Source: a phage. From it: DNA of 64,000 bases. A program made the translations under genes and the position numbers. Under the pieces are notes generated by a model, which made no database searches, was not told where the DNA came from, and saw only the letters and a program-made list of their open reading frames with translations. Shown here in pieces: positions 32,812-34,543 of this stretch (position 1 is the stretch's first letter; each line of letters starts with the position of its first letter). Where the stretch lies: the sequence record PZ053912.1. One strand, 5' to 3'.

Positions 32812-33636
32812 TTAACAATTTGTAGACCAAGTCCATTTGGACGAATCTAAAGGAAAGTTTTGAATCGTCCACCACGGCTGCATATCAGTTGGTCCTGGGG
32901 TTCGCCAGGTATATGGAGTACGTGTTGTCGAGGGGCCACCAATTTGATTAGGCCATGCACCTGGACTTGTTGCACCAGATTCTTTAAGCAAATCCGCCAA
33001 TCGTTTTAAAAGGTCTTCACGATCTGAATCTGAATTATTCTTAGGCAGAACCAAACGAGATTCAATATCATCCCACGTGTGTACACGTTGTGCAGTACGA
33101 GGAATGGCATCACGTTCACCACGAGCCAACCAATAAATCGGTACATTAAGAATTTCTGCCGCATGGTCACAGTGATGAGCTAAATCGTCAACGTAACAAA
33201 TCACGTTATATTTTGTTTTAGCTAGTTCAAATAATTGTTCCTTTGACGAATCATGACCACACATCATTACTTCAGAGAAAGCGCCTGGGAACAAAGCATT
33301 CAAATTAAATTGTCTATTCAATCGAGCATCAATTGAATCACCTAGCGCCGTCACGGCTACAAAATTATAGTCTTCTTTTAGTTTATTGATAACTCGAAGA
33401 GCATCCGAATAAGGCGCTAAGTAACGAATAAAATCAGAGCTATTATATTTTTCTATTAATTGTTTACCGAGGTTATCGTCGGTATTGAATAGTTTACCAG
33501 GAGAAATAAATTTTTCATCCTGAATCATTTTTAAAATATGTTCTAATGGAAGATTATATTTTTGGGCAAAATAAGGAAGTCCAGATTGCCAGCTTAAACA
33601 TACACCATCAATATCAGTCAAAATAGTAGGTTTCAT
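32812..33636 (-). CDS. HAD-superfamily hydrolase-like protein with W/P/T-rich C-terminal tail (274 aa)
   Basis: N-terminal DIDGV (DxDG[TV]) motif and later YVDD motif typical of HAD phosphatases; unusual Trp/Pro-rich last ~50 aa. Confidence 0.5.
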   Translation of the reverse strand: MKPTILTDIDGVCLSWQSGLPYFAQKYNLPLEHILKMIQDEKFISPGKLFNTDDNLGKQLIEKYNSSDFIRYLAPYSDALRVINKLKEDYNFVAVTALGDSIDARLNRQFNLNALFPGAFSEVMMCGHDSSKEQLFELAKTKYNVICYVDDLAHHCDHAAEILNVPIYWLARGERDAIPRTAQRVHTWDDIESRLVLPKNNSDSDREDLLKRLADLLKESGATSPGAWPNQIGGPSTTRTPYTWRTPGPTDMQPWWTIQNFPLDSSKWTWSTNC

Positions 33637-34100
33637 AAAGAGTCTCTTAATAGGTTTAACACATCAACAAATTCAGCTTCGGTTAGTATTGTATCATCTT
33701 TTGTTAGACCGCTAGCCATGCTGTGCTTCAAAATTTTTCCTTTAGAGGCTTGTAAGGCATCACGAAACCCCTTGTTTTGGAACGCTGCTTCAAAATATGC
33801 ATTTGTGTATAATTCTTTCCACGCCGGAGAGTATCTTGAAAACGGAACTCCAAGCCAAAAGAGGGTCCCACGGTCCTGAGCTCTAGCATAAGACCTTCCA
33901 GCTTGTTGGGCGGCAAGCCCGGATAACCCAAATATACGACGTTGCTGTTCAACATTTTTCACCTTACATCCTTGGAGAAATCCTTCAAGACCTCCGAATT
34001 GAATACCATCCATAACAAAAGGCCATTGGGCAAAGTTACTTAATGCACATGATGGCCATTTGAAATTGCTTCTTATTTCTAATTCAGACATCTTTAACAC
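33633..34100 (-). CDS. NADAR (YbiA/DUF1768)-like domain protein (155 aa)
   Basis: LSNFAQWP...DG...EGFLQGCK and later FEAAFQNKGFRDALQAS blocks resemble YbiA-type NADAR proteins (FSNFAAWP...EHYFQAQK); assignment from memory. Confidence 0.45.
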   Translation of the reverse strand: MLKMSELEIRSNFKWPSCALSNFAQWPFVMDGIQFGGLEGFLQGCKVKNVEQQRRIFGLSGLAAQQAGRSYARAQDRGTLFWLGVPFSRYSPAWKELYTNAYFEAAFQNKGFRDALQASKGKILKHSMASGLTKDDTILTEAEFVDVLNLLRDSL

Positions 34101-34302
34101 TTATAATTTCAACATCAGCCCAATGGCCATATCCAGGTATACGGTCTTCGATAGATAAATTTCCGTCATTTTTAGGAATTTTAATTGACGTAACATATGG
34201 TTCTAAACGGTTTTCTGCATAATATGGAAAAACGTCTGTTACACGATAAGTAACTTCGATCATTTCCGTACCAAACAATTTCTGGATTAATTTATTCAAC
34301 AT
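34084..34302 (-). CDS. hypothetical protein (72 aa)
   Basis: Small ORF in operon-like overlap with neighbours. Confidence 0.5.
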   Translation of the reverse strand: MLNKLIQKLFGTEMIEVTYRVTDVFPYYAENRLEPYVTSIKIPKNDGNLSIEDRIPGYGHWADVEIISVKDV

Positions 34303-34489: not shown

Positions 34490-34543
34490 ATTTTTCCACT
34501 TACTAAAGAAATCATTATACTCTAATCCGTCCTTGGATGTAAA

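Follow-up and report, generated by a model that had tools for sequence, protein, structure and literature searches.

Two adjoining open reading frames in a 64,000-nucleotide stretch of phage DNA (sequence record PZ053912.1, further referred to as the window) raise the question of whether a NADAR-like protein and a HAD-like phosphatase act together as one ADP-ribose or nucleotide processing module. Such a module, possibly directed against host defence, was suggested in an earlier note on this DNA, which pointed to the overlap of the two frames and to the nearby genes for DNA ligase and the Alt ADP-ribosyltransferase. The phage is T4-like (Tequatrovirus). The frames of 155 and 274 codons are both present on the minus strand where that note had placed them, and their sequence similarities, well past chance expectation, identify them as real genes. 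They correspond to T4 genes 30.3 and 30.2, the former named adfN in a 2024 publication (PMC11257639).

The features of the locus are collected in Table 1. The small gene almost certainly starts at the ATG at 34091, giving 152 amino acids, and not at the GTG at 34100 from which 155 had been counted: the ATG agrees with the T4 annotation and with homologues beginning MSELEIRS, and it is the only start that fits the published E36/K43 numbering. The three extra codons of the mechanical call probably do not belong to the translated AdfN. The stop codon of gene 30.4 overlaps the adfN start (ATGTCTGA), hence adfN is probably translationally coupled to 30.4. The 274-codon gene, described in the earlier note as upstream, is downstream of the small gene in the direction of transcription. 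Of the two genes placed there at one gene from the ligase gene, only 30.2 is at that distance (with 30.1 in between); 30.3 is two genes away. The junctions of the cluster from 30.5 to 30 are, in order, overlaps of 11, 8 and 4 nt, a gap of 9 nt and an overlap of 4 nt. The 4-nt overlap of 30.3 and 30.2 (ATGA) is thus real; as a sign of coupling specific to these two genes it was rejected, given that every junction of the cluster is overlapped or nearly so. The sigma-70-like sequence upstream of 30.5 is likely the early promoter of the packed unit 30.5-30.4-30.3-30.2-30.1-30.

Table 1. Features of the adfN–30.2 locus (positions in the window)
Feature	Coordinates	Strand	Description
adfN (T4 gene 30.3)	33633..34091	-	152 aa from ATG; by T4 orthology, putative NADAR-fold DNA ADP-ribosylglycohydrolase, orphan antitoxin against DarT1
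adfN catalytic codons	E36 33984-33986; K43 33963-33965; H123 33723-33725	-	
Three extra codons of the mechanical ORF call	34092..34100	-	GTG-CTA-AAG (MLK); inside the 30.4 CDS
Gene 30.2, residues 1-195	33052..33636	-	Predicted HAD phosphatase core with C1 helical cap
Gene 30.2, motif I codons (D8/D10)	33613-33615, 33607-33609	-	
Gene 30.2, remaining motifs			II, T96; III, K132; IV, D150/D151
Gene 30.2, residues 196-222	32971..33051	-	Linker; one amphipathic helix, residues 203-221 (secondary structure, pLDDT)
Gene 30.2, residues 223-274 and stop codon	32812..32970	-	Trp/Pro/Thr-rich tail, predicted disordered (pLDDT < 50)
Gene 30.4	34084..34302	-	72 aa; PHROG 2042; function not assigned
Sigma-70-like promoter upstream of 30.5	34514..34543	-	TTTACA, 18-nt spacer, TATAAT; 11/12 matches (consensus scan only)

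The small protein shares 147 of its 152 residues (97%) with T4 gp30.3. The five substitutions (window to T4: K11R, F104I, I120V, M125I and V142I) are conservative, and none of them affects an invariant position. The profile Pfam PF08010 is matched over its whole length (positions 1–138 of 138) at 230.9 bits, the cutoff being 36 (E 5e-69). Residues E36, K43 and H123 recur unchanged in all 35 AdfN homologues compared, down to 35% identity, and the core motif that had been read as NADAR-like is present (LSNFAQWPFVMDGIQFGGLEGFLQGCK). The protein is full length, ending LLRDSL like that of T4, without the truncation of the RB69 type. Homologues are contained in approximately 1,500 phage records.

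A profile search had been proposed as a check on both proteins, and its direct part failed: the Pfam NADAR profile (PF08719) had no match to the window AdfN at E ≤ 1, and no Pfam HAD model reached the gathering score for the window gp30.2 (HAD_2, 16 bits vs 23.8). The links had to be sought through family profiles and structure prediction, and there they held. PF08719 is matched by 14 of 35 AdfN relatives (best E 1.5e-7), and the AdfN family profile matches YbiA (2b3w) at E 0.002 across the SNFA...E..Q..K block. In the predicted AdfN model (pLDDT 93), which has the NADAR fold, the C-terminal helix is intact (residues 138–151). Foldseek gave probability 1.00 only to 2b3w (E 1e-5, TM 0.67), 8bau and 8bat, the three solved NADAR structures (YbiA and the NADARs of P. 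nicotianae and G. lovleyi). By its predicted fold and by transitive sequence links via family members and the family profile, AdfN is placed in the NADAR superfamily. The NCBIfam search returned nothing useful for AdfN or gp30.2.

For the T4 orthologue, the anti-DarT role of this NADAR-family protein has been demonstrated (PMC11257639, PMC11125620, bioRxiv 10.1101/2025.11.20.689424), so that the part of the earlier note concerning the small protein had already been answered. T4 AdfN is both required and sufficient for counteracting DarTG1 but has no such role against DarTG2, which T4 counters with another gene, tk.4/adfM. The purified protein alone strips ADP-ribose from DNA in vitro and does not bind DarT; it hydrolyses guanosine-ADPr and not thymidine-ADPr, and its E36A and K43A mutants are inactive. 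The family of the AdfN type is defined by the catalytic Glu and Lys (E36 and K43 in T4) together with a phage-specific His of the last strand (PMC11257639, PMC11125620). The RB69 allele, which has lost the C-terminal helix, is inactive. NADARs including AdfN act on the guanine-ADPr made by DarT1, whereas DarT2 makes thymidine-ADPr; the rescue from DarT2-type toxicity that had been suggested as a test would be negative.

Orthology to the T4 protein and the intact E36, K43 and H123 suggest that the window AdfN removes ADP-ribose from DarT1-modified DNA. The host DarT1 would put ADP-ribose on guanine of the phage DNA and so block replication; AdfN would excise it from the base, restoring the DNA without binding the toxin. 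A profile search for DarT/ART domains in the neighbouring genes 30.4, 30.5 and 30.2 found none, the sole ART nearby being Alt (PF03496). With no adjacent DarT gene, adfN represents an orphan antitoxin, as published.

The 274-residue protein, gp30.2, matches PHROG 420 at E 1e-77 and has homologues in approximately 1,440 phage records. The HAD motifs recognized previously are confirmed, DIDGV at residues 8–12 and YVDD at residues 148–151. Even relatives with 20–33% identity keep residues D8, D10, R108, K132 and D151 without exception; D150 is invariant in 30 closer homologues, and T96 is retained in at least 90%. The core of the predicted model (pLDDT > 90) has the Rossmannoid HAD fold, and the helices at residues 16–65, inserted after motif I in the model, make up a C1 helical cap. 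The predicted fold and the catalytic motifs thus agree with the HAD-type phosphatase proposed from the letters, and we are confident in describing the modelled protein as a HAD-fold phosphatase with a helical cap. W16 is aligned with the Phe of the ‘DGVLADF’ segment of cdN/mdN, which is the base-stacking residue in mdN structures.

Members of the gp30.2 family gave only sub-threshold matches to Pfam HAD models. The NT5C profile (PF06941) is not matched by the window gp30.2 itself; 12 of its 34 distant relatives do match it (best E 1.1e-8). PDB searches with the single sequence and with the first profile were marginal (2jao, E 0.11 and 0.63). A profile of distant relatives (A4), built from a search of 1.84 billion proteins, retrieved 3bwv over the full length at E 1.9e-5, followed by approximately ten mdN/cdN entries. 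These distant-relative profiles tentatively assign gp30.2 to the branch of NT5C-like proteins, the 5'(3')-deoxyribonucleotidases. Given this placement, its most likely substrate for dephosphorylation would be a nucleoside monophosphate or some comparable small phosphoester, and a helical cap closing over the active site also suggests a small substrate. The predicted mechanism is that of a Mg-dependent HAD phosphatase, with Asp8 as the nucleophile and Asp10 as the general acid/base; Thr96 and Lys132 would bind the phosphate, and Asp150 and Asp151 the metal. Literature searches on gp30.2 (gene 30.2, NP_049815) yielded neither a relevant paper nor biochemical data; the NARP3 paper contains no HAD component. 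Fusion proteins of the gp30.2 family (P0265, P0309, P0252 and P0208) carry partner domains without Pfam matches.

The unusual C-terminal tail of gp30.2 is as Trp/Pro/Thr-rich as had been remarked: these residues constitute 46% of the last 52 positions vs 9% of the core. By the model, the tail is disordered, and it is variable within the family. A comparison with the tails of 100 homologues shows that it retains the family motif W..PGP[ST]D..PW[WY] and lacks the distal GTGIEYLxRQPT common in many relatives. It aligns with the tail of P0026 (E 5e-8), and the linker (residues 196–222) is homologous to the tails of relatives from Klebsiella phages. The possibility that it is a frameshifted tail of the T4 type was rejected: no other frame encodes GTGIEYL, and the in-frame tail matches those from Klebsiella phages. 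The tail probably docks the protein to a partner.

As for the pair itself, we consider it very probable that 30.3 and 30.2 are co-transcribed early genes with separate jobs, AdfN as a glycohydrolase and gp30.2 as a HAD phosphatase, and do not form an obligate module. This follows from the neutrality of 30.2 insertions under DarTG1 and from the unlinked state of the genes in many T4-like phages. In the T4 transposon data, insertions in 30.3 drop approximately 150-fold under DarTG1 (log2FC -7.25) and those in 30.2 are neutral (log2FC -0.12, p 0.61). Gene 30.4 is partly depleted (log2FC -1.79, adjusted p 0.014), consistent with polarity on adfN. T4 can dispense with 30.2, which carries insertions at 72 of 72 sites and is likewise neutral in M9 and with RnlAB; the screen was done in one laboratory host, and a conditional role of 30.2 may escape it. 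Among 77 loci anchored on 30.2, ligase gene 30 lies just downstream in 72, and 30.3 is within 6 kb in only 37 and missing from this range in 40; in at least seven contigs 30.2 and 30.3 are separated by approximately 55 kb. Conversely, when 80 loci are anchored on AdfN, a 30.2-like gene lies within 6 kb in only 22–24, and 56 have no HAD neighbour. The gene-pair module put forward in the earlier note is therefore not borne out.

In a true two-enzyme module, the NT5C-like phosphatase would dispose of what AdfN produces by freeing ADP-ribose or by acting on ADP-ribosylated nucleotides. Candidates for that product are dGMP that carries ADP-ribose and stems from recycled host DNA, breakdown products of ADP-ribose, or a related nucleotide, which would thus be kept from re-entering DNA or poisoning the cell. 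We regard this arrangement, with its proposed product and purpose, as unlikely. In every Tequatrovirus/Mosigvirus-like locus the two genes do abut, sharing the ATGA, and they lie 0.02–1.25 kb apart in T4-like phages of Acinetobacter, Aeromonas and Klebsiella, and 30.3 of KVP40 overlaps another NT5C gene. Further, T4 AdfN is active only during infection and cannot substitute for DarG1 in uninfected cells, which a phage cofactor could explain; its authors, however, attribute this to a preference for hydroxymethylated DNA, and the purified protein strips ADP-ribose from DNA on its own. Together with the neutral 30.2 insertions and the frequent lack of linkage, this argues against the module.

The usual neighbour of 30.2 is the ligase gene, often abutting or overlapping, and this adjacency persists where 30.1 and 30.3 are absent. 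Hence gp30.2 might be tied to ligase, removing the AMP or PPi by-product of ligation or repair or tuning the nucleotide supply at nick sealing. However, this evidence is synteny, in a family (Straboviridae) whose gene order is broadly conserved, and is accompanied by neither fusion nor co-variation evidence; T4 ligase is essential but 30.2 fully dispensable, and the profiles indicate nucleotidases rather than pyrophosphatases. We consider such a tie quite improbable. It is highly improbable that the NADAR protein works within the ADP-ribosylation system of the phage itself, reversing or recycling the marks that proteins or RNA receive from Alt, ModA or ModB. adfN does share the early region with alt, and Iyer et al. 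(2022) noted early co-expression of NADAR and ARTs in T4-like phages. Nevertheless, the substrate of the T4 enzyme is guanine-ADPr in DNA, and the sole phenotype known for it is the one against DarTG1. Insertions in alt are neutral under DarTG1, as those in 30.3 are without it, and in many phages Alt is not near AdfN. The nearness to Alt, earlier taken as a functional hint, thus reflects shared early-gene synteny.

KVP40-like phages deserve separate consideration. KVP40 30.3 overlaps by 23 nt a downstream, different protein, KVP40.0071, which passes the Pfam NT5C threshold (43.2 bits vs 24.8). The pair occupies a separate locus adjoining gp47 and is conserved in approximately 48 Vibrio phage records, and the gp30.2-type gene stays beside ligase in the KVP40-like phage ValKK3. 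KVP40.0071 is a canonical NT5C protein of 170 aa and not a gp30.2 orthologue (hhalign between the two, E 2e-5). No KVP40.0071-like proteins were found near AdfN in the 80 AdfN-anchored metagenomic loci. The abutment of 30.3 and 30.2 in Tequatrovirus-like loci and the pairing of 30.3 with NT5C in KVP40-like phages still favour a link.

One could read these observations as a recurrent pairing of phage NADARs with an NT5C-like nucleotidase that clears ADP-ribosylated or ADPr-derived nucleotides AdfN cannot handle; T-even phages would use gp30.2 for this, KVP40-like phages an unrelated NT5C gene. This reading is unlikely. If it were true, an example target would be ADPr-dGMP from recycled DarT-modified host DNA, and counter-defence against DarT would comprise a second step, which would go unseen in the one laboratory host used so far.

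The 2024 publication on the T4 orthologue already reported that a phage NADAR undoes DNA ADP-ribosylation of the DarT type, and the window contributes no more than another allele. The annotation is transferable to the approximately 1,500 phage records with an AdfN gene, nearly all of which label it “hypothetical protein”. The product of 30.2 is now recognizable as a predicted NT5C-like HAD phosphatase, with a conserved active site and a ligase-adjacent gene across Straboviridae, which makes it a tractable target for biochemistry. The second NADAR–NT5C pairing, in KVP40-like phages, gives a concrete reason to seek a nucleotide-level counter-defence step.

Among known systems, the closest is T4 itself, where adfN has the same place between 30.4 and 30.2, the same E36/K43/H123 and the same full-length C-terminal helix; the flanking genes of the window (30.4, the tail of 30.2, 30.1, ligase and alt) are far more diverged from those of T4 than adfN is. 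With the DarG1-type NADARs and E. coli YbiA (PF08719; 8bat, 8bau, 2b3w), AdfN has in common the YbiA fold and the SNFA...E..Q..K block, and their guanine-ADPr chemistry is that published for T4 AdfN. Unlike the DarG1-type NADARs, AdfN has no DarT partner gene and carries the last-strand His instead of Asp/Glu. The NT5C enzymes (PF06941; cdN/mdN; 3bwv, 2jao, 1mh9) share with gp30.2 the HAD core, the C1 helical cap, the DxDGV motif and an aromatic residue eight positions past the nucleophile. They are its best profile-to-PDB matches and are among the best fold matches by TM and rmsd, but identity is only 14–18%, and they lack both the family-specific cap sequences (KYNxSDFIRYLAPYxDA, LNRxFNLNALFPGAF) and the 79-residue tail. 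The deoxynucleoside-5'-monophosphatase of phage T5, Dmp, has DxDGT, SK and IDD in register with the gp30.2 motifs and is a precedent for a phage dNMP phosphatase, although it is encoded by a pre-early gene in another genome context and itself has no Pfam match. As a homologue of gp30.2 it was rejected (hhalign E 0.04, probability 1%). Finally, 30.3 and KVP40.0071 of KVP40 (Schizotequatrovirus) resemble the window pair in that a PF08010 gene is followed by an overlapping HAD gene of the NT5C type, and differ from it in the partner, which is not orthologous to gp30.2, and in the locus, by gp47.

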